Positions 3,631-21,541 of a stretch of 35,956 bases of DNA are shown here, piece after piece (the first letter of the stretch is position 1; each line of letters starts with the position of its first letter). Made by a program: the position numbers and the translations under genes. The stretch lies in sequence record SRR2962707_782. One strand, written 5' to 3'. The notes under the pieces were generated by a model. The model was not told the DNA's origin. It worked only from the letters and a program-made list of their open reading frames with translations, and made no database searches.

Positions 3631-4434
3631 ATGACCGCCCTCGAAACACCCGCCCCGCTCCGCCGCAAGCGCACTGACGAAATCGTCGACGCGATCAAAA
3701 AAACCATCATCGAGCACGGCCTGCAGCCCGGAGACCGGCTGCCGCAGGAGCGCGAGTTGATGGAGCAGTACACGGCGTCGAAGGGAACGATCCGCGAGGC
3801 CCTGAAATCACTCGAAGTTCAAGGGCTGATCCGCACCCGCACCGGGCCGGGCGGCGGGGCGTTCATCGACACCATGTCGGAAAACCGGGCGATGAGCCTG
3901 CTGTCCAACTACCTGTTCGCCAAGACGGTGACCATTGGCGACATCTACGCGCTGCGCAAAGTGCTCGAACCGCTGGTTGCCGTCAGCGCCATGGCCAATA
4001 TGAACGACGCGGCCTATGAGCGGCTCAATGGCATCATCGCGATTTACGACCACGAGCCCGCCGACGCGCAGGAACGCTGGGACCAGCGCATGGCCGAACT
4101 CGATTTCCATGCCGTTGTCGCCGAATATGCCGACAATGCGCTGCTCGCCTTCACCTGCCGCTTCCTGCAACGGCTCTTGAAGGATCTCGCCGTCTGCCAC
4201 GACATCTACGTCCAACCCAAGCCCGTGCTGCGCGCCCAGGGGATCCAGTACCAGCGCAGGATGATGGCCGCCATGCAGGCGGGCGATGCCGACAGCGTTC
4301 ACACCATCATGTCAGATCACATGGCCTATGCCGAACGGTCCATGCTGGACCTGCAAGCCCAGCTGAACGGGGACTTCCTCCATGATCCCGTCGCCCGCGG
4401 GCGCACCGGGAAACGGCGGAAGGGCACAAAATGA
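3631..4434 (+). CDS. GntR/FadR-family transcriptional regulator
   Basis: wHTH PGDRLPQERELMEQY..SKGTIREALKSLE..GLI plus FCD domain (DFHAVVA). ATG 3631 just after the upstream stop is preferred over the ORF-track start 3553. Confidence 0.92.
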   Translation: MTALETPAPLRRKRTDEIVDAIKKTIIEHGLQPGDRLPQERELMEQYTASKGTIREALKSLEVQGLIRTRTGPGGGAFIDTMSENRAMSLLSNYLFAKTVTIGDIYALRKVLEPLVAVSAMANMNDAAYERLNGIIAIYDHEPADAQERWDQRMAELDFHAVVAEYADNALLAFTCRFLQRLLKDLAVCHDIYVQPKPVLRAQGIQYQRRMMAAMQAGDADSVHTIMSDHMAYAERSMLDLQAQLNGDFLHDPVARGRTGKRRKGTK

Positions 4435-7159: not shown

Positions 7160-7765
7160 TTAAATGCGGGCGGCGGTCCATTGCACCATCTGGCGCAGGA
7201 TGGCGTCGAGCGCGCTGTTGAGGGCGGCGACCACATTGGCCTGATCGAGCGAGGGCGATGGAACATCGGCGCTGAAGGTCTGGCTGGCGATGACCGTGCG
7301 GCTTCGGTCGCTCACAAGCTGGATGGCCAGGGCAACGCGCGCCATGGCGCCGCCAGCGGTCGTATCGAGTTCGAACGCCCGGATGTCGGTGGACAGGATT
7401 ACATCAAGCGCAATCGGATCGGTCGGCTTGCCGATGTTGGTGACCCCGGCGTCGCGGAACGATTGCAGCATGCGGGTCTGGACCAGCATGGGCAGCGTGT
7501 CGGACCATTGAGCTTCACTGAGATAGCTCAGAACGCCGCCGGGCTGGCGGACGACGATCCTCTGGGTGTCGTAGGTGGAAATGGTAGCCGGCTCGCGCAC
7601 GACGATCGTGCGGTTGCTTCGCGGCGCAACTGGCGCGGGCGCACCCGGCGTCAGATCATAGGTCACGGGCGCCGTGGCGCCCAGCCCGAGGCAGCCGGCC
7701 AGCGTCGAGGTGAGCCCGATGGCGGACATCGAGAGAAAGGCGCGGCGGCCGATTTTGGCACTCAT
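7160..7765 (-). CDS. ABC-type transport auxiliary lipoprotein (PqiC-like)
   Basis: Twin-arginine-like GRRAFL plus lipobox LAGC, AQWSD.LP motif, last gene of the MCE operon. Confidence 0.85.
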   Translation of the reverse strand: MSAKIGRRAFLSMSAIGLTSTLAGCLGLGATAPVTYDLTPGAPAPVAPRSNRTIVVREPATISTYDTQRIVVRQPGGVLSYLSEAQWSDTLPMLVQTRMLQSFRDAGVTNIGKPTDPIALDVILSTDIRAFELDTTAGGAMARVALAIQLVSDRSRTVIASQTFSADVPSPSLDQANVVAALNSALDAILRQMVQWTAARI

Positions 7766-7818
7766 CTGGCTCGTCCCTTGTTTAAGCTTTATCGCGTTTC
7801 CGACCTGCCACGCTGAAA

Positions 7819-9486
7819 CTACGGCGTGAAGTCGCGCACGGTTTCTCCGCCGAACACCAGCGACTGCGGATTGCGCTCGATTTGTTGCATAACGCGGTTG
7901 AAGAGCTCAAGGCTCCGTACCGCCTCGTTGGCGAGGGTGGTATAGGCACCCAGTCCGTTGTTGGTGAATGTGATAAGGCCGTTCGAGATGGCCAGCGTGC
8001 GCTCGTCGAGCGCATTGGCGAGGCTTTCGATGGAGTTGGCCGCCGTGGCGATATCGGCGACCACCCGCTGCCCCTCGGGCGAAGCAGCAACACTGTTGAG
8101 CGTGTCGGACAGTTCGCGAATAGAGGTCGCAGCCGCGCTGAAATCGGCAAACAGCGATTGCCCATCCTCAGACGCCACCATTCCATCAACGCGATTGATG
8201 AGCTGGCGCAGCGCAGTCGCTGTCGCGCCGAACTCCTCGAACAGCATGTTGCCGTCCTCGGTGGTGATCATGCCGTCGATGCGGGCGATGATGGTGTCGG
8301 CGCGTTCGGTGGCGTTGCCCAGCGTTTCGGTGAAGGTGCGCGTGTTGGTGAGGATTTCATCGACATTGACGGCGTTGTTACCCAAGGCAGTCGCAAAGGC
8401 GTCGATGTTGTCCATGGCCCGGGCAATAACGTCGGGATCGACTGCAGCGGACGCCCGATCAATCAGGTCGAGGGTGCCCTGCAGCCCATCCGAGACGCCC
8501 GAAAGATTGGTGGCAAGGGCGCGCGCATCATCGAAAAAGCCCTGAATGTTCTCGGTGTTGTCGGCCAGCGTCTGGGCGAAGGTGCCAATATCGGAAACGG
8601 TCGAGCGAACGTCCTCAGGCGGAATGGCAGCTACGATCTCGCGGACCTGGACGGTCAGATCGCGCAGTTCGTCGGCCAACGGCCCAATGCGTTCGCTGGT
8701 CGCCGTCATTGAGGACAGGAAGCCGTCTATGCCTTCGGAATTGGAGGCCAGCGCGGTCGAAAATGTCTCGGCATTAGCGATGGTCGCTGTGAGGCTTTCG
8801 CGGTTTTCGGCAACCAGAAGTTCAAGCTCGGAGAGCGTTGCCGTGGCGCTTTCCAGCGCCGTGCTGACGTTGGAAACCACTGTATCGAAATCTGATCCCT
8901 CGCCCGCGCCCTCAACCAGGCCGGCGAGGCCGCTGGACAACTCGTCGATGTTGGCAAGAGTGGACGTCAACCGCTCCTCGTTGGAGGCAAAGAATGTGTC
9001 GATGCGTTCGAAGGTGGATTCGGCGCTGGCGATGATGTCGCGGGCGCCTTCCATTATCAGCTGAAAATCTGAGGCTTCGCCACGCATGACCGCTATGGTC
9101 TGGCCCGGCTGCGGTTCGAGCCTTCCCGCTTCGAGCGTGCCGCCCAATAGCTGGATGTTGGCAAAACCGGTCAGCCCCTGCACCTCGAGAATGGCGCGGG
9201 TGTCGTTCATGACCGGCGCGTCGGCTTCCACACCAATGCGGGCCAAGACCTGGCTGGGGTTTTCGGGATTGATCGAAACCGCTTCGACCGTACCCACAGG
9301 CAGACCGTTGAAAAGCACGTTGGTGCCGGGCGCCAGGCCCGTCACCGCGCCATCGAAAACGATACGATATGCGGCGCGTTCGCTCACCTGATCGGCTATC
9401 GAGAACCAATAGACAAAGCCCATGAACCCCGCGATAACCAAGGTCATGAAGGCGCCGACGATGGCGTAATTTGCCTTATTTTCCAT
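7819..9486 (-). CDS. mlaD: MCE/MlaD-family protein with long helical tail
   Basis: MENKANYAIVGAF N-terminal TM, MCE motif VTGL..G..V.FNG..VG.V, GLTG, C-terminal IERNPQSLVFG. Confidence 0.9.
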   Translation of the reverse strand: MENKANYAIVGAFMTLVIAGFMGFVYWFSIADQVSERAAYRIVFDGAVTGLAPGTNVLFNGLPVGTVEAVSINPENPSQVLARIGVEADAPVMNDTRAILEVQGLTGFANIQLLGGTLEAGRLEPQPGQTIAVMRGEASDFQLIMEGARDIIASAESTFERIDTFFASNEERLTSTLANIDELSSGLAGLVEGAGEGSDFDTVVSNVSTALESATATLSELELLVAENRESLTATIANAETFSTALASNSEGIDGFLSSMTATSERIGPLADELRDLTVQVREIVAAIPPEDVRSTVSDIGTFAQTLADNTENIQGFFDDARALATNLSGVSDGLQGTLDLIDRASAAVDPDVIARAMDNIDAFATALGNNAVNVDEILTNTRTFTETLGNATERADTIIARIDGMITTEDGNMLFEEFGATATALRQLINRVDGMVASEDGQSLFADFSAAATSIRELSDTLNSVAASPEGQRVVADIATAANSIESLANALDERTLAISNGLITFTNNGLGAYTTLANEAVRSLELFNRVMQQIERNPQSLVFGGETVRDFTP

Positions 9487-9489
9487 CGT

Positions 9490-10269
9490 TTAGTGTCGCT
9501 CCAGATGGTGCTCGGCGCGCGGGCCATGGAAATAATCGACCAACCAGGGGTCGTCCGACGCCTGCAGCTCGGCCAGCGTGCCCACCTGCAGCAATCTGCC
9601 CTGTCCGAGAGCGGCGATACGGTCGCAGACCGTAACGAGGCTGTCGAGGTCGTGGGTGACCATATAGACGGTAAGCCCCAGCGCCGTCTTGAGGCTCAAC
9701 ACAAGTTCATCGAACCGGGCGGCCCCTATCGGGTCGAGCCCGGCGGTGGGTTCATCCAGGAAGATGACGTCGGGATCGAGCGCCAGAGCGCGCGCCAGGG
9801 CAGCCCGCTTGATCATTCCGCCTGACAATTCGGCAGGATAGAGGTTTTCGGCTTCAGGGCTGAGGCCGACGAGATCAATCTTGAAGCGGGCAATTTCGCG
9901 GCGCAGCTTTTTCGGGATATCGAAGTGCTCGCGCATGGGGAATTCGACGTTTTCGAGGACCGTGAGCGAGGAAAACAGCGCTCCTTGCTGGAACAGCACG
10001 CCCCAGCGGCGTTCGACGGCAACGCGATCTCGTGAGGACAGACCGGCATAGTCCTGGCCGAAGACCTCGATTGTGCCGGCGCGCTTGGGCAAAAGCCCGA
10101 TAAGCGCCCGCAAAGTCACCGATTTGCCAGAACCGGAGGGGCCGATGACGCCAAGTACCTCGCCCTTGCGGACGTCGAGCGTGAAGCCATCGATGACGTT
10201 GCGATCGCCAAAGCCAACCACGAGGTCGCGGATCGAGATGATGGGATCTGGGATTGCCGCGTCGACCAT
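9490..10269 (-). CDS. mlaF: MlaF-type ABC ATPase
   Basis: GPSGSGKS, LFQQGALFSSLTV, LSGGMIKRAALARA, DEPTAGLDP, VTHD. Confidence 0.92.
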   Translation of the reverse strand: MVDAAIPDPIISIRDLVVGFGDRNVIDGFTLDVRKGEVLGVIGPSGSGKSVTLRALIGLLPKRAGTIEVFGQDYAGLSSRDRVAVERRWGVLFQQGALFSSLTVLENVEFPMREHFDIPKKLRREIARFKIDLVGLSPEAENLYPAELSGGMIKRAALARALALDPDVIFLDEPTAGLDPIGAARFDELVLSLKTALGLTVYMVTHDLDSLVTVCDRIAALGQGRLLQVGTLAELQASDDPWLVDYFHGPRAEHHLERH

Positions 10270-10271
10270 GC

Positions 10272-11411
10272 CTAAACCCCGATGGCCGCAAAGAAAATGG
10301 CGAACAGGCCATCGGCAACGATGACCAGGAAGATCGAGCGCACGACCGAGGCCGTTGTGTGCCGGCCAAGCGATTCGGCGCTGCCTTTCACCTTGAAGCC
10401 CTCGTTGGTGGCGACCAGGCCGATGATGACCGCCATGAAAGGCGCCTTGACCATGCCCACCAGAAGCGTCTGCATGTTGAGCGCATCCTGCAACCGATCG
10501 AGAAAGATATCGAACGGGATACCACCATAGACCAGCGCCACGATGGCCGCGCCCAGCAGCCCCGACAGCGCCCCGATGAAGGCCAGGAACGGCAGTCCGA
10601 TCAGCAGCGCAATGATGCGCGGCAGGATCAGCACCTGATAGGGATCGACACCCATGACCTTGAGCGCGTCGAGCTCCTCGCGCATACGCATCGAACCCAA
10701 TTCGGCGGTAATCGCCGAACCGGACCGGCCCGCAATCATGATGGCGGCAAGCAGAAGCCCGACCTCGCGTAGCATCAGGATTGCCGCAAGATCGACCACG
10801 TAGATCGCCACGCCGAAATTGTTGAGCTGGAGAATGGATTGCTGGGTGATGATGGCGCCGACCACCACCGAAATCAGCATCACTATGGGCACGGCACGGA
10901 ACGCGATCAGATCGAGCTGATTGACCAGGGCCGCCCCCCGGAACGGCGCACGGAAGGTGAGCGTGGCGCCGGCAGCGGCCATCACCCGGCCCAGTACGGC
11001 GTGAATGGTAACCACATCGCCGAGCGCATTGGCGGTCATGTGGCCCAGCCCGTCGAACGGTCGCAAAAGCCAGGGTAGCGTAGTTTTGGCGACCGGCGCG
11101 TGCGGCTCAATGGCGTTGACGTGGCTGAGAAGCGCTTCCTGCGCCTTGGTGGCACCGGTGATGGCGGTTTGGACGCCCTGCCCCATTGCATCGCGGCGCC
11201 GAGCCAGCAGGAAGGCGCCGACCGTATCTAGCGCTGTTACGCCGGCCAGATTGAACTCTAGCCGGGACGGAACCGGGTGCGCCGCAAAGCCCGATTCGAT
11301 CCGCGACTGGATCTGCTGCGTCCATTGCGTGGTCCACGCCCCGGAAAGGCGCGCTACGAGAACACCGTCTGCACCGGACATCTCGATCTGGGGCTCATCG
11401 AGCTGGGTCAT
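10272..11411 (-). CDS. mlaE: MlaE-family permease with N-terminal STAS-like domain
   Basis: LREVG, AGRSGSAITAELGSMRMREELDAL, TTASVV, and STAS-like LDTVGA. Start 11411 is preferred; 11510 is possible. Confidence 0.88.
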   Translation of the reverse strand: MTQLDEPQIEMSGADGVLVARLSGAWTTQWTQQIQSRIESGFAAHPVPSRLEFNLAGVTALDTVGAFLLARRRDAMGQGVQTAITGATKAQEALLSHVNAIEPHAPVAKTTLPWLLRPFDGLGHMTANALGDVVTIHAVLGRVMAAAGATLTFRAPFRGAALVNQLDLIAFRAVPIVMLISVVVGAIITQQSILQLNNFGVAIYVVDLAAILMLREVGLLLAAIMIAGRSGSAITAELGSMRMREELDALKVMGVDPYQVLILPRIIALLIGLPFLAFIGALSGLLGAAIVALVYGGIPFDIFLDRLQDALNMQTLLVGMVKAPFMAVIIGLVATNEGFKVKGSAESLGRHTTASVVRSIFLVIVADGLFAIFFAAIGV

Positions 11412-11763
11412 GAAGTCTGCGCTTGTACTCCCGCGTGGGACGCCTCCCGAAACGGGCAATCCTCCCAGATTCCTTAACACGCGGAATTCGGCTTGTCCTG
11501 AGCCTGTCATGGACTTCCGCGCTCAAGTTACGCGTTGGGCGGGGGGTGATGCATTTGTGCAAGACTTGCGGTTCGATCAGTCGAAGGCAGACGATAGCGA
11601 TTCGGCGCGGCTCATTGAGGGCCACCACGCTTGCCGAGGGTGTGGCCGCCGAGCACGATCCAGATCGCAACGATTATCATTGCACCTGCCAGCAGAAGGT
11701 AAGCCCCATCCCTGCGCCCGATCGCTGCGGCGCGTAATTCTGCCTAATCCCCACAGACTCTGA

Positions 11764-12516
11764 TCAATTCGTGATGGATCGCATCAGGCCCTCGTAGAGC
11801 GTCCGGGTTTCGGCCGAGATCGCAACGTTGAGTTCGTGGCGGAGCTCGGTTTCGCAACGCTGGTAGACCTGCTTGAGTCTCGCGGCGTTGCGGCTCGCGG
11901 CAGCATCGATCATAAGAATACGGAACGCCTCTTCATTACAGGGGTCGACCGACAGGATTTCCTGGGCCAGGGCCCGGCGGGCCGGACCGTTCTTGCTTGC
12001 CCAGCTTTCGTCGCTAATAGATTGTGCCAACCGGTCCAGAAAGCGGCCCCGCAGTGTTTCACGCCATGTCCCGAGCCAATCCTCGAACTCGGGGCCGGAA
12101 TCGTGGATATCGGCCAGTAGCTCTCCGGGGTAGCTGCCCAGACGGACGGGCTGTCCTTGATCGAGAAGAATTCCCCAAAGCCGCTTGAGGTCCCAACTGA
12201 CCTGGGCGTCCTCGACCAGATAGACTGTGTGGAAATTGGATTCGATGAGCGTGAAGCCATATTTGGCCTGCAGGGCCCTGATGCGTGCCAGTGAACGGCG
12301 CAGATTGGCCGCTGCCCGATCTGCGTCGCGGGGATCGGACCAGAGCGCCGACCATAGCCTCTGGCGCGTCACCGAGCCATTCGTGCCCGCCAGCAGCAAA
12401 TAGGCCGCCACCTTGTAAAAGATTGTGGGCACACCCGACACAACCTTGCCGTCTACGACGATGACACAGGATCCGACGGTCGAAATCGCTATCCGTGTAT
12501 TGGCGCTGTGGATCAT
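11764..12516 (-). CDS. Stand-alone SARP-like regulator (wHTH + BTAD)
   Basis: AYLLL..VTRQRL..ALW..AAANLRRSLARIR (wHTH). BTAD: GELL..FEDWL..RE, DPCNEEAFR.LM, Y..C...L..EL.V..S.ET..LY. RBS GGAGG. Confidence 0.85.
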   Translation of the reverse strand: MIHSANTRIAISTVGSCVIVVDGKVVSGVPTIFYKVAAYLLLAGTNGSVTRQRLWSALWSDPRDADRAAANLRRSLARIRALQAKYGFTLIESNFHTVYLVEDAQVSWDLKRLWGILLDQGQPVRLGSYPGELLADIHDSGPEFEDWLGTWRETLRGRFLDRLAQSISDESWASKNGPARRALAQEILSVDPCNEEAFRILMIDAAASRNAARLKQVYQRCETELRHELNVAISAETRTLYEGLMRSITN

Positions 12517-12648
12517 GAACGAGGCACCTCCACTTTCGGCCTAGCGCAGGTGATTCGGAAGAGCTTTGCTATAAATCAAAAACGCTAAGCCAGGAGCGGC
12601 GGCGGGCGGCGATTAGCGCGTGCCTTCACTAGTTCCTGCGCTGCCAAC

Positions 12649-13146
12649 TCATGCGCTGCGACGCGGTTCTGCCGCGCCTTCATTCAGAAAATCGTGAATA
12701 TCCCTGTTGGTGGCGACCAGAACCTGGATTGCGTCCGAGAGGCGCTGAAATTCCTCATCATCGAGCGGCTCCACCTTGCCGTATCGAACGTTGCGCCCAA
12801 AATCGGCGATGCGCAGAAGTTCGGTGCGATCCATGTCGCCGTGCTCGTCGAACGAAAAGATGCTGTGGCTGTATTTGTTGCGGACCTTGGACGCCGCTTT
12901 CATCCGCCCCGAGATGGCCAGAACGCGGTCCTGAACCTGGGACGAAACCCCGGGAAGCTTAGACAGGCGCTCGATCAGATCGAGGCGGGCCCGGGTTGTG
13001 TTGAGTGTGAGATAGGTCACGATTGCAACGTTCTTTTCCACACCCATCAGAAGGCACATGACGTCGATGAGCAGGCTCTCGGTGTTGCTCCAGGTGTAAA
13101 CGAGCTTTCCGATCAACAGCAGCAATGTCTCTGTACGGGTTGACAT
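12649..13146 (-). CDS. Hypothetical helical protein with HEPN-like RNxxxH motif
   Basis: RBS GAGGA directly after the LuxR-type stop. Pattern IG.....WS..E followed by RNKYSH at aa 89-94. Confidence 0.75.
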   Translation of the reverse strand: MSTRTETLLLLIGKLVYTWSNTESLLIDVMCLLMGVEKNVAIVTYLTLNTTRARLDLIERLSKLPGVSSQVQDRVLAISGRMKAASKVRNKYSHSIFSFDEHGDMDRTELLRIADFGRNVRYGKVEPLDDEEFQRLSDAIQVLVATNRDIHDFLNEGAAEPRRSA

Positions 13147-13158
13147 GCCGTTCGTCCT

Positions 13159-13935
13159 CTATTGTGCAGCGTTACGGCGCGCGGACCCTCGCGGCTCGGG
13201 CGCCAGGCTGTGGAAAACTGCCGCCGCCTGCGTTCGATTGGTGACGTTGAGCTTGTTCATGAGGTTGTGAACGTGGACCTTTACGGTGTGCTCGGAGAGC
13301 TTAACGCGGTCCGCGATCAACTTGTTGGGCCAGCCTTCGGCAATCAGCGAGAGCACCTGGCGCTCGCGCGTTGTAAGATGGGCAAACTCGCCCGCCCGCC
13401 CGGTTGACGCAGCCGCTGCGGAGGTCCTGCCGACAGGCGTCCCCACACCAGAGCCCAATCGCGTCTGCAGCAAATCCTTGGCAAATCGCAATGGCCGCGA
13501 GCGCGCGACGGGAAAGAACTGGCCGCCACTGAGCACCAGCGATACGGCGGCAAGAAACACTTCGAGTTTCAAGGTCAGCGGAATGAAACCCTGGATCGAA
13601 GCGGCGTCGGCAAAGCCCCGCCAGTCGCCTTCCCCATCGGCGCGGTCGACCAGAAGGGCCAGCGCGGCTTCAGGGAAAATCTGCTGGGATTGCTCGATGC
13701 GTGTTGAGGGAATTTCGCCCGGCCGCACATGAACCAACAGAAGCTGGACGAAATGATCGGGGGCAGCGGCCTCGTCCACGTCTTCGCATATAACAACGTG
13801 AGCGCGCAGGTGGCTTTCGAGGTTTCGCGCCAACCCTTCGAACAGCGCTCCCTTGTCAGCATTGATCACTATGGCGGCCGACGGACCACCCTGATCGGGC
13901 AAGTGCCAATTCGGAGTAGAGAAAAGATCTGTCAT
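13159..13935 (-). CDS. LuxR/NarL-family regulator with degenerate receiver-like domain
   Basis: C-terminal HTH LTTRERQVLSLIAEGWPNKLIA...LSEHTVKVHVHNLMNKLNVTNRTQAA. The N-terminal REC-like region lacks an evident phospho-Asp. Confidence 0.88.
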   Translation of the reverse strand: MTDLFSTPNWHLPDQGGPSAAIVINADKGALFEGLARNLESHLRAHVVICEDVDEAAAPDHFVQLLLVHVRPGEIPSTRIEQSQQIFPEAALALLVDRADGEGDWRGFADAASIQGFIPLTLKLEVFLAAVSLVLSGGQFFPVARSRPLRFAKDLLQTRLGSGVGTPVGRTSAAAASTGRAGEFAHLTTRERQVLSLIAEGWPNKLIADRVKLSEHTVKVHVHNLMNKLNVTNRTQAAAVFHSLAPEPRGSARRNAAQ

Positions 13936-13989
13936 GGCCGCTCTTCCCCCATAGACGCCAATGCCGCTGGATCGTCACCGATCTAAATC

Positions 13990-14005
13990 TTAATGAGGTC
14001 TTAAC
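13990..14005. promoter_or_regulatory. CtrA-binding box TTAA-N7-TTAAC
   Basis: TTAA TGAGGTC TTAAC at 13990-14005 matches the established CtrA consensus exactly, in the divergent intergenic region. Confidence 0.75.
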
Positions 14006-14011
14006 GCACCC

Positions 14012-14032
14012 AGCGTGACTCAAGCGTGACTC
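14012..14032 (+). repeat. 10-bp direct repeat AGCGTGACTC x2 (11-bp period), each copy containing a GANTC site
   Basis: Copies at 14012-14021 and 14023-14032. Confidence 0.7.
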
Positions 14033-14142
14033 GGATGACCTATGAAACGCGTGCAAGGCTGGGCTTTTGCTGCAAAGGGGTAAAACCGTCACACAATCGC
14101 GGACTCTAAAGTATCGGTTTGGGCGCAGTTTTACCCATGCGA

Positions 14143-14207
14143 GTTAGCTCCAAGTGATAAGTTTTCCGCCTGAAACCTGTCTACCGGCACACCTGTGTTA
14201 GCTCCAA
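14143..14207 (+). repeat. 11-bp direct repeat GTTAGCTCCAA x2, 54 bp apart
   Basis: Copies at 14143-14153 and 14197-14207 upstream of the repeat-protein gene. Confidence 0.65.
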
Positions 14208-14363
14208 TTGTCGGCTTACCCAACGCCTAAGCAGACGCCATCCTTTGATGGTCCCGGAGCCTTTTGGCTGATCTCGGGACTGACACAAGCGGTACAGGAA
14301 TTGGCCTCGTTGCAGATGAAAGAGGCGCTCCGGCTACCGCTTCCATGAAAAGGGAGAACTGCC

Positions 14364-15689
14364 GTGGCTGACGAAGAGTATAATGGCCCCTATGTCGAAG
14401 ACACGACCAACAACGGAACCATCCAGGAGGACAGTGACTACGAAGTTGACGTCGAAGTCGAAGATTCGTTCAACGACAACAGCGAAGAGACCGACGTAGA
14501 AGTCGAGGTCGAAGACTCGTTCAACGACAACAGCGAGGAAACTGAGGTCGAAGTCGAGGATTCGTTTAACGACAACAGCGAAAACACCGACGTAGAAGTC
14601 GAGGTCGAAGTCGAAGATTCGTTCAATGACGAGTCGACCGAGATCGACACCGAAATTGAAGACTCGTTCAACAGCGAAGAAACCGACGTCGAAGTCGAGG
14701 TCGAAGATTCGTTCAACGACGAGTCCGTCGAAACCGACGACTCTTTCAACACCGACACAGAGACTGAAATCGAGATCGAGGAATCGTTTAACGACAACAG
14801 CGAAAACACCGATGTCGACGTAGAGATCGAAGACTCGCTCAACGACAACTCGACAGAGGTCGACACCGAAGTCGAGATCGAAGACTCGTTCAACGATCGC
14901 AGTCAGACCACCAATGTCGCCGCGAACTTCGCGCTGGAAGAAACCAACACGAACTCGCACAACACCAGCGATGACGACACCACGGAAGTCGATGTAGAGA
15001 TCGAGGATTCCTTCAACGAGGAAACCACCGAGATCGATACCGAGATCGAGGATTCCTTCAACGAGGAAACCGAAATCGACACCGAGATCGAGATTGAAGA
15101 CTCCTTCAACGATCAGTCCGACACCAACTCGCACAACGACAGCTCGACCAACACCGACACCGAGATCGAGACTGAAGACTCGTTCAACGTCGAAACCGAT
15201 GTCGAGATCGAGGACTCGTTCAACACCGAGACGACCACGACGGATGTCGACGTCGAGATCAAGGACTCTTTCAAGTCGTACGAAAATGCTTTCAACGACT
15301 CCAGCGAGAGCTTTGGCGAAATCTCGGTCGACTTCGACAACGTCTTCAACGGCGCCTTCGGCGGTGACGGCTCGGGCGATGGCTTTGCCATCAATCAGGT
15401 CGCCGACATCGTGGACAACGACTCGCTCTGGGATGTTCAGCAGAACAACTCGGGTGGCTTCGAGATGTCAGCGAATGGCGGTATTGCGGCCCAGGTCGCC
15501 TGGGACGACGTCGACGATCCGTTCGACGGCACGACGGTGGCCGATGCGAGCGCTCAGCTTCAGGGCACAGCGTTCAACCTCGATATCGTTCTGGGTTCGA
15601 ACCTGCAGCAGAACGCTGTGGACGTTTCGATCGTTGGCGGCTCGGCCGACAACAACGATACCACGACGACCAGCGGCGACAGCTTCTGA
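14364..15689 (+). CDS. Highly acidic EDSFN-repeat protein, probable T1SS substrate
   Basis: GTG start with RBS AGGGAG. 13 exact DSFN motifs plus about 7 variants. Only 3 Lys/Arg, no Cys and no signal peptide in 441 aa. First gene of the T1SS operon. Confidence 0.88.
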   Translation: MADEEYNGPYVEDTTNNGTIQEDSDYEVDVEVEDSFNDNSEETDVEVEVEDSFNDNSEETEVEVEDSFNDNSENTDVEVEVEVEDSFNDESTEIDTEIEDSFNSEETDVEVEVEDSFNDESVETDDSFNTDTETEIEIEESFNDNSENTDVDVEIEDSLNDNSTEVDTEVEIEDSFNDRSQTTNVAANFALEETNTNSHNTSDDDTTEVDVEIEDSFNEETTEIDTEIEDSFNEETEIDTEIEIEDSFNDQSDTNSHNDSSTNTDTEIETEDSFNVETDVEIEDSFNTETTTTDVDVEIKDSFKSYENAFNDSSESFGEISVDFDNVFNGAFGGDGSGDGFAINQVADIVDNDSLWDVQQNNSGGFEMSANGGIAAQVAWDDVDDPFDGTTVADASAQLQGTAFNLDIVLGSNLQQNAVDVSIVGGSADNNDTTTTSGDSF

Positions 15690-15705
15690 TTGAAAAGCAA
15701 TTGTG

Positions 15706-15733
15706 CGTCCCGCGCGGGCTTCCGCGCGGGACG
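15706..15733 (+). terminator. Intra-operon GC-rich hairpin (mRNA stabiliser or leaky terminator)
   Basis: Perfect 12-bp stem CGTCCCGCGCGG/CCGCGCGGGACG with a GCTT loop. No U-tract follows. Confidence 0.65.
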
Positions 15734-15764
15734 TCAAGCGCCAATCATGATCGTCTAAAGAGGG

Positions 15765-17729
15765 GTGACGGTGTTTTCCAACGGAGACTATCTCACCGAA
15801 AAGATTGCACACTTCATTGGCCACTTCGAAATTGCCGAGGAAGCTGCGCGCCTGAGACAGCAGCCCGAAGGCTTCGACAAGGCCGGGCAGGATGCTGTCG
15901 GTCGGCCGCTTGAAGGGCCGACGCCGGTGCCGTTTGTCGCGGAGGATGTGGACGTGGGGTATGTGCCCGGCGTCGACCATGCCCCCCAGCAAAACCATTC
16001 TGATTTGGTATTTGAAGGCGAGCCCTTCCAATTCGACCCGCCGATTATCACGGTTCCGTCCATGCGGATCGGCGCCCCGGCGCCCGGCGAGGCGGATATC
16101 GACGGGGTCTGGCAGGCGCCACACACCCTCCAGGCGGGAATGCCGCCGCCTTCGCTGATCTTTGTGGCTCAGCAGCACAAGTTTTTGTTCGACAACGACG
16201 TCGTCGTTATCGGTGAAGGCTATGACGGTCCCTTCCCGACAACGCCGAATTCGCTCGCGTCAGTCGACGCCCTCAGCGCGAAAGTCGCCGAGGTCCTGGC
16301 GCCGCTGGCCGAGCTACCGCTCGAAATGAACGAGGAAAATATCGCCCCGTGGGTCAAGAGCACCTCCAGCGCTGCCGACAGCGTGGAGGAGGCAACCGCC
16401 GCCGGTGAAACGCTCGAGGGGCAATGGGTAAACGGGGAATCGGCAGAAACAGTACCGGAACTGGTCGACCATCTTCCAAAGGCCTGGCAGGACCCTGAAA
16501 CAGATACGCCGACAACGTCGGACCCCATCATCATCGACGCCTCCGAGGCCCAAACGACAATGGATCTGCAGACAGGCGGCAACCTGTCGCTGAACCAGGC
16601 GACAATTATCAATGCCGGGCTCGTTGGGACCACTATGGCAGTGGAAGGCAATGTCTATGAACTGGACGTCATAATGCAGGTTAACGCCGTCCAGGATATC
16701 GACACGATCGACGAAGGGTTTGCGGTTCTGCCGGGCGCTGATATGGAAACCACGGCGACCAATGTCGCCCAGTTCATCAAGAGCACTACAGACATCGCGT
16801 CCGAAAGGGCTGACCTCAACCCCGAGACAATGCCCTCGGGTTGGCAGGTCACCATCGTCGAGGACGATCTCATCTTCTTTGAGTGGGCCTATCAGTACAA
16901 TCTGACCTGGGACAATGATTGCCTGGTCGCCACGGCAACAGGCACCACAACATTTGTGAGCACCGGCGCAAATGTCGGGTTCAATGCAGTATCTTTTTCC
17001 GATCTGGGTGCGATGTACGACCTGATCATGGTCGGCGGAAATCTGTACGACGCCAATTACATCTGCCAGACCAATATCGTCTACGACAACGACACGCTCT
17101 CCATGTTCGGCTCTTCTTTCGATCAGGCGGGCAGCACGACCACGGGCGGCAACGTACTGTGGAACCAGGCCCTCATCCAGAACATGGGCGCCGCTGACTG
17201 GAGCCATGATCTACCCGCCCACTACCAGCAGGCCATGGACGCGCTCGACGCTGGCAATGCCGCCATGCCCGGCGGGTTCGCCACCGACAGCGGCTTCGCC
17301 GGGTATGGCGATCTCAATGTCCTCTACGTCAAGGGCAACATCTTCGACATCAATTATGTCGAACAGGTCAACATCATCTCCGATGCGGACCACGTCGCAC
17401 TCTATGGGGCGGAACTGGCGCAATCGGCGGAATGGACCATTGCGACGGGGACGAACACCGCCGTCAACGTCGCTGCCATTCTCGACCACGACAGCAATGG
17501 CAGCGTGAGCTACGTCGGCGGCGAGGTCTATTCGCAGGCGCTCTTGATCCAGGCCGATTTTGTCGAAACCGGTGCCGGCGAACTCACGGGCGAAGCCCCC
17601 CTAGCAAATGAAGTCATCGCTTTCCTCACCGACGACGATCTGTCGGCCAGCGACATGCCTGCCATCGACAATGTTGGCGCGCTTGAGTCCGGTCCGATCG
17701 TCGACGTGATGGATTCCATTCTCGCGTGA
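15765..17729 (+). CDS. Acidic multi-module protein, probable second T1SS substrate
   Basis: 654-aa ORF without signal peptide, with recurring Q-x5-D-x-D and TG-x-N-x3-N motifs. GTG 15771 after GAGGGG may be the true start. Confidence 0.85.
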   Translation: MTVFSNGDYLTEKIAHFIGHFEIAEEAARLRQQPEGFDKAGQDAVGRPLEGPTPVPFVAEDVDVGYVPGVDHAPQQNHSDLVFEGEPFQFDPPIITVPSMRIGAPAPGEADIDGVWQAPHTLQAGMPPPSLIFVAQQHKFLFDNDVVVIGEGYDGPFPTTPNSLASVDALSAKVAEVLAPLAELPLEMNEENIAPWVKSTSSAADSVEEATAAGETLEGQWVNGESAETVPELVDHLPKAWQDPETDTPTTSDPIIIDASEAQTTMDLQTGGNLSLNQATIINAGLVGTTMAVEGNVYELDVIMQVNAVQDIDTIDEGFAVLPGADMETTATNVAQFIKSTTDIASERADLNPETMPSGWQVTIVEDDLIFFEWAYQYNLTWDNDCLVATATGTTTFVSTGANVGFNAVSFSDLGAMYDLIMVGGNLYDANYICQTNIVYDNDTLSMFGSSFDQAGSTTTGGNVLWNQALIQNMGAADWSHDLPAHYQQAMDALDAGNAAMPGGFATDSGFAGYGDLNVLYVKGNIFDINYVEQVNIISDADHVALYGAELAQSAEWTIATGTNTAVNVAAILDHDSNGSVSYVGGEVYSQALLIQADFVETGAGELTGEAPLANEVIAFLTDDDLSASDMPAIDNVGALESGPIVDVMDSILA

Positions 17730-17746
17730 CCAGCGAAAGGTCGGCC

Positions 17747-20089
17747 ATGTCTGCCATTCTCGAAACCAATCCTGGCTCTGACGGACCCTCGCGTGCCTCG
17801 CGGAACGGCCAGGCAATCGACGCGGCAGTGGCCAAAATCGACATGGCCACGCATCAGCTTCGCGCCATTGCGCAGGGCGAAGAAGAACCGCAAGTCGTAC
17901 CCATCATAAAATCCATACAGCCGCAGCATTCCGCAACCGTAACTCCGCTTCGGCCCGTACAGAACGATGCGCCGGCCGGTGCCGCTCGCCCGGCATCACT
18001 TGCCACGCCACCGGCGCCCGAGCCTACGGCCAGGGAAATCCTGCTCCAGGGGAAACCCGTTCCGATCACACCTGCGGACCCCGCGCCAGTACCCCGGCCG
18101 GAAACACCGGTTCAACCGGCGGCGCGCCAGGCGGAGCCGTCAGGTCCGGCTGCCCCGCAGGTCAAGCGCCCCGAACAGGAAGCGCCTCCGGCCCCGGAGG
18201 CAAAGCGCCCCGAGCAGGACAGGATCGAAGTGCGCGATCCGGCCAGCGAGCGCATCCCGGAAATGGCGCCGACACTGGAAGGTGAACGGGCGACGGTCCG
18301 GCGCCCTTCGGGCAGTGGCGGCGGATCCGGCACGCCCCCGGGCGGTGGAGGCGGCAATGGCGGCTTTCACAGGCGCGCCGAAATGCCCAATTTCGCCGAG
18401 AGTTTTCAGAACGGCGTCAATGCGGTACGGCGCAACATCGCCATGGTGATGGTGTTTACAGTCGCCACCAACATCCTCGTTCTCGCCATCCCGATCTATC
18501 TGTTCCAGATTTCTGACCGTGTACTCACCAGCCGTTCGGTGGATACGCTCGTCATGCTCACCATTGTCGTGGTCGGCGCTGTCCTGCTGCAGGCCGTGCT
18601 CGATGCTATCCGACGTTTCATCCTCATGCGCACGGCTGTCGAGATCGAAGTTCAACTCGGCGCGCCGGTCCTGAGCGCCGCCGCAAGGTCCTCACTCAAT
18701 GGCACGAGCAAGGACTATCACGTGCTCGGCGACCTGCAGCAAATGCGATCATTTATCACCTCGGGCACGCTGATCTCTATCCTCGACGCGCCTCTGGCAC
18801 CGCTGTTCATTGCCGCAATCTTTCTCATCCACCCCCATCTCGGTGCCATCGTCGTCGCGGCCTGCCTGGCCCTGCTGATCTTTGCGACGATCAACCAGAG
18901 GATGACATCCCGGCATTTTTCCGATGCGAACGGCTTTCTCAGCCGCGCCACGCTCCATCTCGATTCCATGTCGCGAAATGCTCAGATCATCAATGCGCTC
19001 GCCATGATCCCCGAGGCTGTCAGGATATGGGGCCGCGACACCGCGCTGTCCCTGCGCGCCCAGGTCCGGGCCCAGGACCGCAATATTGCGATCGCCACCT
19101 TCTCCAAAGCCTTCCGGATGCTCACCCAGGTCGCGATGCTGGGCTGGGGCGCCTATCTTGCGCTATTGGGCGAAATGACGGGCGGCATGGTAATTGCCGC
19201 CTCGATCATCGCGGCCCGCGCCCTGACGCCAATCGAAGGCGCCATCGAGGGGTGGCACCATTTCACGAGCTTTAGAGGCTCCTTCCGCAAGATCCGCGGC
19301 CTGCTGCAGAGTTCGCCCTTCAACACCCCGCGCCTGTTGCTGCCCCAGCCGCAAGGCCGGCTCGATGTCGAACGCATCCTCTACGTGCCCCCGCCGAACA
19401 AGAAGGTGATCCTCAATGGCATCTCCTTCTCGCTCGCTCCGGGCGAATCCATGGCGATCATCGGCAATTCGGGGTCGGGCAAGACCACGCTGGGCAAGAT
19501 GCTGGTGGGATCGGTGCTCCCGACATCGGGCAGCGTGCGGCTCGACCTTATGGACTTGCGCAACTGGGACATGCGCCAGTTCGGCGAAAACATCGGCTAT
19601 CTGCCACAGGACGTTCAGCTCTTTCCCGGGACCATCAAGGCCAACATCGCCCGTATGCGCGATGATGCGACCGACCGCGACATTCACGCGGCGGCCGTTC
19701 TTGCCGATGTGCATGAGATGATCGCCTCTTTCCCGCAGGGCTATGAAACCGTGGTGGCCGCCGACGGCGCGCCGCTCTCGGGTGGACAAAAGCAGCGCAT
19801 CGCCCTGGCGCGCGCCTTTTTTGGCAACCCGAAACTCGTGGTACTCGACGAGCCCAACTCCAACCTCGACTCGCCGGGCGAACAGGCTTTGGCCAAGGCC
19901 CTGCTGCACGCCAAAAAGCAGAACATCACCACCGTGACCATCACCCAGCGCACGGCGCTCTTGAGCTACGTCGACAAGATCATGGTGCTCGCCAACGGCT
20001 CGGTGGGCATGCTTGGCGAGCGCACAAAGGTACTCCAGGCCCTCACACAGGGCGGCGGCACCGCCGGCCCTTCCATTCCCAAGGAGTGA
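17747..20089 (+). CDS. Type I secretion ABC permease/ATPase (PrtD/AprD-like) with long Pro-rich N-terminal extension
   Basis: PIYLFQISDRVLTSRS.DTL, GGMVIAASII..RAL.PIE, GNSGSGKT, IGYLPQDVQLF.GTI, LSGGQKQRIALARA, LDEPNSNLD. ATG 17747 has RBS AAAGG; the GTG at 17726 is an alternative start. Confidence 0.93.
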   Translation: MSAILETNPGSDGPSRASRNGQAIDAAVAKIDMATHQLRAIAQGEEEPQVVPIIKSIQPQHSATVTPLRPVQNDAPAGAARPASLATPPAPEPTAREILLQGKPVPITPADPAPVPRPETPVQPAARQAEPSGPAAPQVKRPEQEAPPAPEAKRPEQDRIEVRDPASERIPEMAPTLEGERATVRRPSGSGGGSGTPPGGGGGNGGFHRRAEMPNFAESFQNGVNAVRRNIAMVMVFTVATNILVLAIPIYLFQISDRVLTSRSVDTLVMLTIVVVGAVLLQAVLDAIRRFILMRTAVEIEVQLGAPVLSAAARSSLNGTSKDYHVLGDLQQMRSFITSGTLISILDAPLAPLFIAAIFLIHPHLGAIVVAACLALLIFATINQRMTSRHFSDANGFLSRATLHLDSMSRNAQIINALAMIPEAVRIWGRDTALSLRAQVRAQDRNIAIATFSKAFRMLTQVAMLGWGAYLALLGEMTGGMVIAASIIAARALTPIEGAIEGWHHFTSFRGSFRKIRGLLQSSPFNTPRLLLPQPQGRLDVERILYVPPPNKKVILNGISFSLAPGESMAIIGNSGSGKTTLGKMLVGSVLPTSGSVRLDLMDLRNWDMRQFGENIGYLPQDVQLFPGTIKANIARMRDDATDRDIHAAAVLADVHEMIASFPQGYETVVAADGAPLSGGQKQRIALARAFFGNPKLVVLDEPNSNLDSPGEQALAKALLHAKKQNITTVTITQRTALLSYVDKIMVLANGSVGMLGERTKVLQALTQGGGTAGPSIPKE

Positions 20090-20092
20090 TCG

Positions 20093-21427
20093 ATGACGCT
20101 TGTGTCGGCCGGTAAGGCCCCCGAATGGTACTCGGATGTTCCGCGCTCGATCCGTCTTCAGACGCTACTGGGGCTTGGGCTGATCCTGGTGACCTTCGGC
20201 GGGTTCGGCTTATGGGCCGGCACTGCCCCCCTCGCCTCAGCGGTGATCGCTCCGGGCAGCTTCGTTGCCACGGGCAGCAACAAGATCGTCCAGCATCTCG
20301 AAGGCGGGATCATTCGCCAATTGCTCGTCGAGGAGGGTGAAAGGGTCGAGGCCGGACAGGATCTCGTGTATCTCGACAGCACGACGGCGCTCGCCAATGC
20401 TCGCAGCATCGAGTTGCGCATTATCCGGCTCGAGGCCATGCAGGCCCGCCTCCAGTCCCAGTTCGAGGGGGCGGCTGCCTATAGTCCCCCTGACTCTGTG
20501 CTTGCCCGCCTCGACGACCCCGAAGTGCGCTCCATCAATGACGGGCAGCGCGAAAGTTTCGACACGGCCCGCACGGCACTACAGAGCCGGCTCGACGTGC
20601 TGGGCGAAAACGTCAGCGCACTTGAATTCCAGCACACCGGCATCACCGCACAGCTCGACTCCTTTGAACGTCAGCGGGTGCTGCTGGAAGAGGATCATGG
20701 GATTCAGGCAGCTCTCTACGCCAGACAATTGACGACGCTGTCCAATGTCAACGCGCTGCAGCGCTCGCTCGCAGATGCCGACGGGGATATCGCCCGACTC
20801 GAATCCGAGGCAGGGATGACGCTGGCCCAGATCGAGCAGCACCGCCGCGAGATCGACCAATTGGTCTCTGCGGACCGCCAGGCCGCCCTTGGTGAATTGC
20901 AGCAGGTCTCGGCCGAACTCGAAACGTTGCGCGAAGAGATGAACAGCGTTCAGAATATTCTTTCACGCACGGTGATAACGGCACCCGCCGCCGGCATCGT
21001 CGTGCGGCTCTATTACCATACATCCGGCGGCGTCATCGAAAGCGGCCGCCCGATCATCGAAATCCTGCCCTCCGACGTGCCGCTGATCATCGAAGCGCAG
21101 ATTCCCCGCATGCAGATCGACGAGATCGAACTGGGCCAAAAGGCCGACGTCCGGCTTTCGGCCCTCAATCAGCGCACCACCCCATTGCTCGAAGGTGAGG
21201 TCGCCTATGTCTCGGCCGATTCCATCAACGATGGCGGTTCGGGATCGAACGAAATCTATATCGCGCGGGTGACCATCCCCCCCGACCAGCTCGAACGCGT
21301 TTCGGGGTTCACCCCCACCCCCGGCATGCCGGCCGAGATCCTCATCGAAACCGACGCGCGCACATTCTTTGAATATTTGAGCAAGCCCATCGTCGACAGC
21401 ATGGCCCGCGCCTTCAGAGAACAATGA
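20093..21427 (+). CDS. HlyD-family type I secretion membrane fusion protein
   Basis: N-terminal TM, KIVQHLEGGII..LLVEEG..V..GQ, coiled coil, ITAPAAG.V, PGMPAE..I, FFEYL.KP. Confidence 0.95.
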   Translation: MTLVSAGKAPEWYSDVPRSIRLQTLLGLGLILVTFGGFGLWAGTAPLASAVIAPGSFVATGSNKIVQHLEGGIIRQLLVEEGERVEAGQDLVYLDSTTALANARSIELRIIRLEAMQARLQSQFEGAAAYSPPDSVLARLDDPEVRSINDGQRESFDTARTALQSRLDVLGENVSALEFQHTGITAQLDSFERQRVLLEEDHGIQAALYARQLTTLSNVNALQRSLADADGDIARLESEAGMTLAQIEQHRREIDQLVSADRQAALGELQQVSAELETLREEMNSVQNILSRTVITAPAAGIVVRLYYHTSGGVIESGRPIIEILPSDVPLIIEAQIPRMQIDEIELGQKADVRLSALNQRTTPLLEGEVAYVSADSINDGGSGSNEIYIARVTIPPDQLERVSGFTPTPGMPAEILIETDARTFFEYLSKPIVDSMARAFREQ

Positions 21428-21500: not shown

Positions 21501-21541
21501 CTTCCAGGCAGCCTAGCGCGACTTCCAGGCAGCCTAGCGCG
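21501..21541 (+). repeat. Perfect 20-bp tandem duplication CTTCCAGGCAGCCTAGCGCG (21-bp period)
   Basis: Copies at 21501-21520 and 21522-21541, with a partial third copy CTTCCTGGC at 21552-21560. Confidence 0.85.

Follow-up and report, generated by a model that had tools for sequence, protein, structure and literature searches.

A conserved alphaproteobacterial gene cassette links two undescribed proteins to a dedicated PrtD/HlyD-type exporter and local regulators

We analysed a stretch of DNA of 35,956 nucleotides (nt) from sequence record SRR2962707_782, hereafter the window, which contains a divergent locus of seven genes. On the plus strand, two undescribed proteins, designated cargo1 and cargo2, are encoded upstream of an ATP-binding cassette (ABC) transporter and a HlyD-family adaptor of a type I secretion system. 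On the minus strand lie genes for a LuxR-type regulator, a protein of 165 amino acids (aa), and a protein with a BTAD domain. A first-pass annotation, made from the letters of the window, had placed seven open reading frames (ORFs) at this locus, and all of them were found at those positions (Table 1). The intergenic region between the divergent LuxR-type and cargo1 genes is 428 nt long, and the LuxR-type gene precedes the 165-aa gene by 12 nt, in the same orientation. Comparison with related loci supported a self-contained and conserved cassette that couples the two undescribed proteins with a dedicated PrtD/HlyD exporter and with regulators encoded alongside.

Table 1 Positions of the genes and other features of the locus within the window.
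Feature	Position	Strand	Remarks
BTAD-domain regulator gene	11764..12516	-	250 aa
165-aa protein gene	12649..13146	-	family without characterisation
LuxR/GerE-type regulator gene	13159..13935	-	258 aa
Direct repeat AGCGTGACTCA/AGCGTGACTC	14012..14032	+	11-nt period; divergent promoter region; candidate operator
cargo1	14364..15689	+	441 aa; acidic
GC-rich hairpin	15705..15734	+	13-bp stem, no U tract; between cargo1 and cargo2
cargo2	15771..17729	+	about 652 aa; longest ORF from 15765, 654 aa
PrtD-type type I secretion ABC permease/ATPase gene	17726..20089	+	787 aa
HlyD-family type I secretion adaptor gene	20093..21427	+	444 aa
Terminator-like stem-loop	21573..21596	+	T-rich tail; 3' of the HlyD gene

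Relatives of cargo2 were collected by a pattern scan of 185,579 species genomes, which gave 194 confirmed relatives, and genes were counted at the best 80 of these 194. For this purpose, hidden Markov models based on the window plus six loci excised from genomes of relatives were scored on the 80 loci, and each gene was counted over the loci with enough flanking DNA only. The ABC gene directly followed cargo2 in 77 of 78 loci, the HlyD gene was present in all 77 that could be scored, and a cargo1-like gene lay directly upstream of cargo2 in 68 of 70. For the minus-strand genes, the 165-aa gene was found in 60 of 60 loci and the LuxR-type gene in 54 of 60, compared with 8 of 60 for the BTAD gene. 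These counts are not independent, since they come from the best 80 of 194 relatives and many of the loci belong to the same genera. The same gene order was observed in all six loci cut from relatives' genomes. The conserved unit thus consists of six genes; the BTAD gene is an addition, found mainly in Devosiaceae and lying outside the conserved core. The seven-gene block and the three-gene regulatory cassette proposed in the first-pass annotation were reduced accordingly: synteny recurred for six genes, in Hyphomicrobiales and on a Rhodobacterales plasmid, and the 165-aa and LuxR-type genes kept their place in the cassette, whereas the BTAD gene did not.

The 80 loci were from Hyphomicrobiales and included Devosia, Phyllobacterium, Mesorhizobium, Sinorhizobium/Ensifer, Neorhizobium, Pararhizobium, Shinella, Aminobacter, Nitratireductor, Aureimonas, and other genera. 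Plasmid and chromid records added the Rhodobacterales Sulfitobacter, Paracoccus, and Cereibacter. Overall, the carriers are Alphaproteobacteria from soil and from the sea. On plasmid pDSM14862_b of Sulfitobacter indolifex (locus L095, 1-15176), the cassette had the same order and was flanked by genes for a GT2 glycosyltransferase, GalE, and UDP-glucuronate decarboxylase on one side and for a DUF3131 protein and a glycosyltransferase on the other. A profile search with cargo2 reached 768 cluster representatives with E ≤ 0.001, of which 529 had E ≤ 1e-30, the majority being about 650 aa long. The word-index search, which found 19 relatives of cargo2 and seven of the C-terminal module of cargo1, understates the size of both families. 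Relative to one of the related loci (L008), the identity was 54% for cargo2, 57% for cargo1, 70% for the ABC protein, and 78% for the HlyD protein; by such comparison, the cargos diverge more quickly than the pump. Full-text searches that excluded supplements and subscription journals returned no description of these families.

Residues 232-773 of the ABC protein matched the PrtD subfamily TIGR01842 with 711.3 bits (cut-off, 510.15), and the adaptor matched TIGR01843 with 376.3 bits (cut-off, 208.65), in agreement with the PrtD-like ABC and HlyD genes that had been assigned to the plus strand. The matching part of the ABC protein was preceded by a Pro/Ala-rich N-terminal extension of about 230 aa (residues 1-231, positions 17726-18420 of the window). 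All 13 aligned orthologues carried such an extension, 123-434 aa long, and the median length of the ORF was 736 aa over 77 loci. The extension was poorly conserved except for a short helix-like stretch near its start (e.g. AIDAAVAKIDMATHQLRAIAQ). The two other PrtD-type genes in the nearest genome had open frames of 573 and 582 aa without any such extension. The absence of a local TolC, as claimed previously, was borne out by the family scan, in which no outer-membrane-factor family was detected among the 23 flanking ORFs of the window. The nearest genome (G001), an assembly other than that of the window, had one TolC-like match of 222.8 bits, just below the cut-off of 225.15, on a separate contig.

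PrtD-type ABC exporters go with C-terminal signals, and type I substrates generally fold only after export. In the last 50 residues, the amino acids LDAVTSIF accounted for 72% of cargo1 and 70% of cargo2, compared with a mean of 57% (range, 48-72) for 23 other proteins of the window; KHPMWC accounted for 0% and 10%, respectively, compared with a mean of 14%. This composition is a weak sign of export for both cargos. From this composition, the gene arrangement, the acidic pI, and the absence of a signal peptide, all of them indirect signs, both would be exported by this ABC/HlyD pump. The composition rule for type I C-terminal signals is quoted in PMC3417381, which describes tandem-repeat type I substrates of Ehrlichia chaffeensis with a pI of about 4, no classical RTX blocks, and an uncleaved C-terminal signal. 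These proteins differ from cargo1 in being effectors of an intracellular pathogen that are not encoded beside a dedicated exporter, and they have no sequence relation to cargo1.

Both cargos had a computed isoelectric point (pI) of about 4.05. Cargo1 contained 32.4% Asp and Glu, 0.7% Lys and Arg, 10.7% Asn, and no Cys, and cargo2 contained 15.1% Asp and Glu, 2.0% Lys and Arg, 5.4% Asn, and two Cys. The cargos had been characterised as very acidic, Asn/Asp-rich proteins without signal peptides, RTX repeats, or recognisable enzyme domains. The acidity held for both, as did the absence of a signal-peptide-like basic or hydrophobic start, judged by inspection of the N-termini MADEEYNG... and M(TV)FSNGDY...; the Asn richness applied to cargo1 and not to cargo2. 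The pattern GG.G.D, standing for the GGxGxD nonapeptide, gave no match in either cargo, and neither of them matched a calcium-binding repeat or an enzyme domain in Pfam at E ≤ 0.1. Indeed, cargo1 had no Pfam match of any kind at this threshold and nothing in NCBIfam; cargo2 likewise had no Pfam match and only one NCBIfam match below the cut-off, with an E-value of 0.042. No solved protein was matched by either cargo in the family scan, and no clear structural match was found for cargo2, curli and Fap included. The cargos share with RTX/serralysin-type substrates the exporter subfamily TIGR01842, an acidic pI, and the LDAVTSIF-rich C-terminal region, and they differ from these in lacking both the nonapeptides and a Pfam calcium-binding repeat or enzyme domain.

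RsaA, the S-layer protein of Caulobacter, is a single large cargo with RTX-like Ca2+ sites, is constitutively expressed at a high level, and is exported by RsaD/RsaE. Like RsaA, the present cargos are acidic and poor in Cys, have C-terminal regions fitting a type I signal and no signal peptide, and are encoded beside a PrtD-type ABC gene and an adaptor gene, with the outer-membrane component elsewhere. A locus of this type, with cargo2 as a para-crystalline Ca2+-dependent layer protein and cargo1 as its accessory or anchor, would account for this arrangement. However, the present locus has two cargos, no RTX motif, and a dedicated pair of regulators, which suggests conditional rather than constitutive high expression. 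In addition, the cassette was missing in 14 of 18 species of the same genus searched, the motifs of cargo2 were strongly conserved across orders, and no similarity to a solved protein was detected, by sequence search for the 165-aa family or by family scan for the cargos. We consider an S-layer or coat locus quite improbable.

The start of cargo2 is probably the GTG at 15771, giving a protein of 652 aa; this start is likelier than that of the longest ORF because GAGGGG is located 5 nt upstream and the orthologues begin with MFSNGD. In an alignment of 19 cargo2 sequences, a variable, disordered linker and a repeat core were located between a conserved N-terminal helix (IAHFIGxF...ARLR) and a conserved C-terminal end. 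The motifs G-x-N-x-x-x-N and Q-x5-D-x-D recurred in the core, and the C-terminal end contained a conserved D-V-M-x-S-V/I-L-A with an invariant Asp (D647). In the core of the window's cargo2, the two motifs occurred four and five times against about 0.2 expected, a count reached by none of 2000 shuffles. The AlphaFold2 prediction made with this alignment had a mean predicted local distance difference test (pLDDT) score of 66.8 and a predicted template modelling (pTM) score of 0.67. In the model, residues 1-129 and 604-654 were disordered, and residues 130-603 formed a beta-rich body that was mostly confident (pLDDT about 70-93), with strands of 15-21 residues. Cargo2 is accordingly modelled as a compact beta-rich repeat protein. 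By our reading of the alignment, the conserved Asp, Asn, and Gln residues occupy alternate strand positions, so that they would line one face.

In cargo1, sixteen [DE]-S-[FL]-[NK] sites, 14 of them fitting D[SA][FLY]N, were arranged in acidic tandem repeats of the type x-V-E-V-E-V-E-D-S-F-N-D-x-S between about residues 30 and 305, for which Tandem Repeats Finder gave periods of 45-51 nt. A 266-aa ORF on the minus strand (14334-15134) with Val, Phe, Asp, and Leu repeats was rejected as an artefact, since it is the mirror image of these tandem repeats. The last 130 aa or so formed a non-repetitive, conserved C-terminal module. In an alignment of 13 cargo1-family sequences, the invariant positions included F332, G334, G336, F341, Q345, D351, and D353, and further on G411, N413, Q415, N417, V424, and G426. 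Conserved blocks were found on both sides of a low-complexity part that varied by lineage, the constant blocks being (F/L)NGAF...INQ..D..DND.L and AFN..IV.GANLQ.N.VD..VVGG. The low-complexity part was acidic and Asn-rich in Devosiaceae, and at least four D[SA][FLY]N sites occurred in 8 of the 68 cargo1-like proteins. In Rhizobiaceae, Mesorhizobium, and their allies, it contained 25-32% Gly, with runs such as GLGLGLGLGVG. Glycine-zipper-like runs of at least five G-hydrophobic pairs were present at least once in 34 of the 68 proteins, and the proteins with such runs were 443-714 aa long. The window's cargo1 had no run of this kind and 4% Gly. Short forms of about 300 aa were found in Phyllobacterium.

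The composition of cargo1 and the alternate Asp/Asn/Gln positions in the strands of cargo2 would also suit soluble extracellular proteins that bind cations or minerals without forming a polymer, either by sequestering Ca2+ or other metals or by binding minerals or polysaccharides. The sequencing runs that contain the stretch include marine, seawater, and phycosphere metagenomes, which would be in line with such a role. However, half of the cargo1 family carries glycine-rich sequence in place of the acidic repeats, with only 6-21% Asp and Glu, and acidity is therefore not a conserved property of cargo1. Furthermore, no metal-uptake genes were linked to the cassette in the loci examined. The chance that the cargos are soluble binders of this kind seems slim.

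The minus-strand genes had been described as LuxR-type, HEPN-like, and SARP/BTAD genes. The first assignment was confirmed by a GerE match (PF00196) of 74.6 bits at residues 186-240 of the LuxR-type protein. No Response_reg match was obtained for this protein at E ≤ 0.1; residues 112-234 aligned with the receiver end, linker, and helix-turn-helix of a canonical REC-GerE protein, and the N-terminal part is probably a degenerate receiver. In the most distant of the loci cut out (L013 4909-6590, genome G045), a HisKA_3 kinase gene and a canonical REC-GerE regulator gene replaced the degenerate LuxR-type gene. For the third assignment, the BTAD half was found (Pfam PF03704, 29.6 bits; cut-off, 22.1; residues 127-243), whereas the N-terminal winged helix expected of a SARP had no Trans_reg_C match at E ≤ 0.1, and residues 1-126 were without any family match.

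The 165-aa protein had no match in Pfam, NCBIfam, PADLOC, or the PDB. None of the PADLOC defence models matched this protein, the BTAD protein, or the cargos at E ≤ 1, and the sequence profile search of the PDB with the 165-aa family returned a chance-level row only (E 0.076). The protein was 45-78% identical across genera. An alignment of 15 members from different genera had 35 invariant columns, including R89, N90, K91, and H94, and showed the conserved motifs Y-x-W-x-N-T-E-S, L-T-L-N-x-x-R-A-R (with a nearly invariant middle Thr-Thr), R-N-K-(Y)-x-H, and Y-G-K. The R89-N-K-Y-x-H94 motif was invariant in all 15 members and fits the Rx4-6H pattern of HEPN nucleases. This motif is the part of the HEPN-like assignment that stood; beyond it, no profile or PDB match confirmed the assignment, and the individual members gave one HEPN_LA2681 match among 15 (E 0.12) and four PucR-type HTH_30 matches among 15 (E 0.0079). 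A lead to MtlR, the nearest named cluster in the Atlas (score, 0.77), was dropped because hhalign against an alignment of 12 MtlR sequences gave a probability of 0.12%. In the word-index search, the family comprised at least 2037 clusters. Among the 120 clusters listed, 119 were hypothetical or unnamed, one was misnamed as a 'nucleic acid-binding Zn-ribbon protein', and none had a Pfam domain. The position of the gene was somewhat variable: it was sometimes downstream of the HlyD gene and not beside the LuxR-type gene (L079 13746-14252, L025 13527-14057, L089 13486-14061), and in Ensifer aridi (L079) there was a copy at either end of the cassette.

In the divergent promoter region, the direct repeat consisted of 1.9 perfect copies (100% identity) in the arrangement GCGTGAC-N4-GCGTGAC. 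This arrangement was kept in the same intergenic region of four related loci (L008, L009, L011, and L012). Among 65 further loci, and with up to two mismatches allowed, 23 had the repeat upstream of cargo2; in 22 of these, it was located between the LuxR-type gene and cargo1. The scan gave 43 matches over 2.58 million positions. These observations make GCGTGAC-N4-GCGTGAC a good candidate for an operator. An assignment as a site specific for the BTAD protein was rejected, since the repeat was present in 8 of 10 BTAD-positive loci and also in 15 of 55 BTAD-negative ones; all Phyllobacterium loci carried it, though they are without the BTAD gene. To the left of the cassette in Phyllobacterium (L024 1635-5000; also L028-L030, L042, L044, and L045), YcaO and TfuA genes were observed, followed by a second GCGTGAC-type direct repeat in the opposite orientation (about 3700-3860). 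Between this repeat and the 165-aa gene, some 1.3 kb has no ORF of more than 124 aa and could hold a small precursor gene or RNA.

On the plus strand, the gap between cargo1 and cargo2 was 75 nt, the start of the ABC gene overlapped the stop of cargo2 by 4 nt, and the ABC and HlyD genes were separated by 3 nt. The stem-loop after the HlyD gene was the sole terminator-like site on the plus strand between 11600 and 21800 and is the likely end of the operon. From the tight gaps and this single site, cargo1, cargo2, and the ABC and HlyD genes would form one operon. The hairpin between the cargos had a folding energy of -35.1 kcal/mol (z -3.88), which none of 200 shuffles equalled. A crude survey, using 30 mononucleotide shuffles for each locus, covered 32 related loci sampled from the 68; in 24 of them, the 150 nt that follow the cargo1 stop contained a stem of 9 bp or more with z < -2. 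A hairpin of this kind could raise the amount of cargo1 relative to that of cargo2.

Based on these findings, we tentatively favour, at a little under even chance, an accessory and conditional cassette for two extracellular structural proteins that are exported by their own type I system and act at the surface or in the matrix. We infer the operon structure, the export of both proteins, the Ca2+ dependence, the association of the cargos, and the surface or matrix role as follows. The four plus-strand genes would be read as one operon from the divergent promoter region under the control of the LuxR-type regulator and its constant 165-aa partner, with GCGTGAC-N4-GCGTGAC as the likely operator, and the hairpin after cargo1 would probably raise cargo1 over cargo2. 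Export of both cargos would start with the C-terminus and proceed in the unfolded state, by way of the ABC/HlyD pump and a TolC-like channel encoded elsewhere. Outside, the modules of cargo2 would fold, probably with Ca2+, to a beta-rich body with long strands and a conserved Asp/Asn/Gln face, and cargo1, presumably a disordered, fast-evolving, low-complexity protein, would stay with cargo2 or the cell surface. The result would be an acidic, cation-binding coat or matrix component for adhesion or biofilm formation.

The closest tested analogue is CabA of Vibrio vulnificus (PMC4584020). CabA is a calcium-binding matrix protein that acts in a Ca2+-dependent manner and requires exopolysaccharide (EPS) to build the matrix. 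For its secretion it depends on the adjacent CabB and CabC, in which the authors see homologues of type I system members, and its gene lies beside EPS genes and the regulator gene brpT. In cabABC as in the present locus, the ABC and membrane-fusion genes directly follow the gene for a structural protein, here a putative one, that is not an enzyme. CabA is a single cargo described as binding calcium, whereas the two cargos here belong to unrelated families without a description. The present locus further differs in having no RTX-type motif, a constant 165-aa partner gene, and an ABC protein with a long N-terminal extension.

Several observations weigh against an accessory surface or matrix cassette. 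Secretion, Ca2+ binding, assembly, and surface location are all predicted features. Genes for EPS or other polysaccharides were seen next to the cassette at one locus only, that on the Sulfitobacter indolifex plasmid. The AlphaFold2 prediction of cargo1 with the alignment of its family had a mean pLDDT of 39.6 and gave no usable model; folding of each cargo had been proposed as a check of the first-pass annotation, and it yielded a beta-rich repeat model for cargo2 and no confident fold for cargo1. A solenoid or cross-beta build of cargo1 is therefore unsupported. The shift of its low-complexity character between lineages is odd for a protein with a single conserved structural role. The claim that the two cargos share sequence modules was not sustained either: homology was undetected, with a best E-value of 0.29 in BLASTP, which is not significant, and a probability of 0.95% (E 0.058 over 25 columns) in hhalign between the two family alignments. 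The common part amounts to two short motifs, of which the C-terminal module of cargo1 has one copy each, Q-x5-D-x-D at Q345...D353 and G-x-N-x-x-x-N at G411...N417. Both copies are on invariant columns of the cargo1 alignment. However, a single copy was reached by 14-23% of shuffles, and the match was spotted post hoc; the match may be taken as a lead and not as a result. A complex prediction with residues 130-654 of cargo2 and 305-441 of cargo1 returned no answer (score, 0.02; mark, 0.34) and speaks neither for nor against binding.

These data on the two cargos also bear on a strict functional amyloid, with one cargo as the major fibre subunit and the other as a surface nucleator. Curli (CsgA/CsgB, with CsgD) and Fap (FapC/FapB) are made of homologous subunits that have Sec signal peptides and leave through outer-membrane pores of their own, CsgG/E/F in the case of curli. 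The resemblance to these systems consists of a subunit and partner pair next to a LuxR-family regulator, here comparable to CsgD, and of Q/N-rich repeat motifs. The cargos are always paired and, within the putative operon, would be co-transcribed, with a hairpin that could set an unequal ratio; in cargo1, V-E-V-E-V-E next to D-S-F-N-D is a pattern that generally favours beta-strands, and the Q/N/D motif pair is kept in both cargo families. In contrast to CsgA and CsgB, which are homologous repeat proteins, cargo1 and cargo2 are not significantly similar, they have no signal peptide, and their neighbours are a type I ABC and adaptor. Moreover, the repeats of cargo1 are not kept from lineage to lineage, no confident fold was obtained for this protein, and cargo2, with its 650 aa, several modules, helices, and long disordered linker, is no compact nucleator. 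Folding after type I export is compatible with such a fibre, though it gives no specific support. Fibre or amyloid formation and nucleation of one cargo by the other are not supported, and a curli- or Fap-like system is in our judgement very unlikely.

The distribution of the cassette adds a further point against a surface or matrix role. The cassette was carried by 4 of 18 species of the genus and by 7 of 61 relatives and, apart from the nearest genome, was found in one of 400 evenly sampled Alphaproteobacteria. A spread as rare and patchy as this is no less suited to competition systems than to matrix genes. The main rival explanation is a contact-dependent or diffusible antagonism of the Cdz type, in which a two-component bacteriocin aggregates on the producer and harms its neighbours, and a conserved small gene protects the producer. 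As reported in PMC5380434, CdzC and CdzD of Caulobacter crescentus leave the cell through an adjacent ABC/HlyD pair, with TolC encoded elsewhere, form sodium dodecyl sulfate (SDS)-stable amyloid-like aggregates on the surface via glycine zippers, and kill neighbouring cells. The same text gives the toxins as hydrophobic proteins of 84-86 aa with N-terminal leader-like regions, mentions an immunity protein with three transmembrane segments, and describes a patchy distribution for which horizontal transfer is suggested. The present locus is likewise alphaproteobacterial, with two co-encoded proteins, an adjacent type I ABC and adaptor, TolC elsewhere, a patchy occurrence among close relatives, and flanks that are not conserved, and the G-hydrophobic runs and high Gly content seen in half of the cargo1-like proteins would agree with glycine zippers. 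However, the window's own cargo1 is free of such runs, and its cargos, at 441 and about 652 aa, are very acidic rather than hydrophobic peptides of 5-10 kDa. The last residues of both are compatible in composition with the C-terminal signals expected for a PrtD-type ABC, whereas leader-like N-termini are described for the Cdz proteins. No ORF for a small hydrophobic or membrane protein of the Cdz immunity type was seen by eye, without the use of a transmembrane predictor, in the two larger intergenic gaps, and the strong conservation of the 165-aa protein across genera is unlike a fast-evolving immunity protein. We regard antagonism of the Cdz type as unlikely, while treating it as the foremost alternative. 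The premise of the first-pass annotation that known systems of this layout use Sec was incomplete, since CabA is exported by what the authors read as a type I system (PMC4584020), and CdzC/CdzD also use type I secretion (PMC5380434).

With respect to novelty, the locus is of a kind already known, in which a dedicated type I exporter lies next to the structural or aggregating protein that it exports and TolC is encoded elsewhere. Its new features are the families of both cargos, the 165-aa protein as a constant partner, the extension of the ABC protein, and the pairing of a conserved-module protein with a hypervariable low-complexity protein. A more far-reaching proposal would be a new class of extracellular polymer made through type I secretion, in which cargo2 templates or anchors the hypervariable cargo1 through a common module, and the 165-aa protein, as a HEPN-like RNase, sets the output together with the LuxR-type regulator by acting post-transcriptionally on a long 5' leader or on the hairpin between the cargo genes. 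We assign this proposal a low probability.

Type I secretion is usually discussed by way of RTX proteins, proteases, lipases, S-layers, and giant adhesins. In the present cassette, three linked protein families are without a Pfam or NCBIfam family, and their members are annotated as 'hypothetical' or, by context, as 'type I secretion protein'. Their function, once worked out, would offer a new type of cargo, and perhaps a new fold, for type I secretion. It might also reveal the way in which substrates are recognised by a pump with a long N-terminal extension, and it might account for a trait that differs among strains of bacteria associated with roots or algae, be it adhesion, the formation of a matrix, or competition. 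Genetic tests are easy to set up, since the families occur in the well-studied Sinorhizobium/Ensifer, Mesorhizobium, Phyllobacterium, Devosia, Paracoccus, and Sulfitobacter.

In the window, the cassette was flanked by an MlaE/MlaD-type transporter on the left and a peptide ABC importer on the right, and these flanking genes were not kept at the related loci. The transporter on the left is a four-gene Mla/MCE-type system (7160-11510, minus strand) consisting of a STAS-MlaE permease, an ABC ATPase, a 555-aa protein with an MlaD domain, and an auxiliary lipoprotein; no linkage to the cassette was found in other genomes. Two RNA-library runs were considered as a source of expression evidence and set aside: their contigs spanned all 15 kb at a flat depth of about 5-13, covering the flanks and intergenic DNA too, and are therefore uninformative on expression. 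Compared with the window, the contigs of a close relative had two differences in length near the ends of the cassette, both of them intergenic: 13 extra nt at 11645, just beyond the end of the BTAD gene, and 21 nt missing at 21501, after the HlyD gene.

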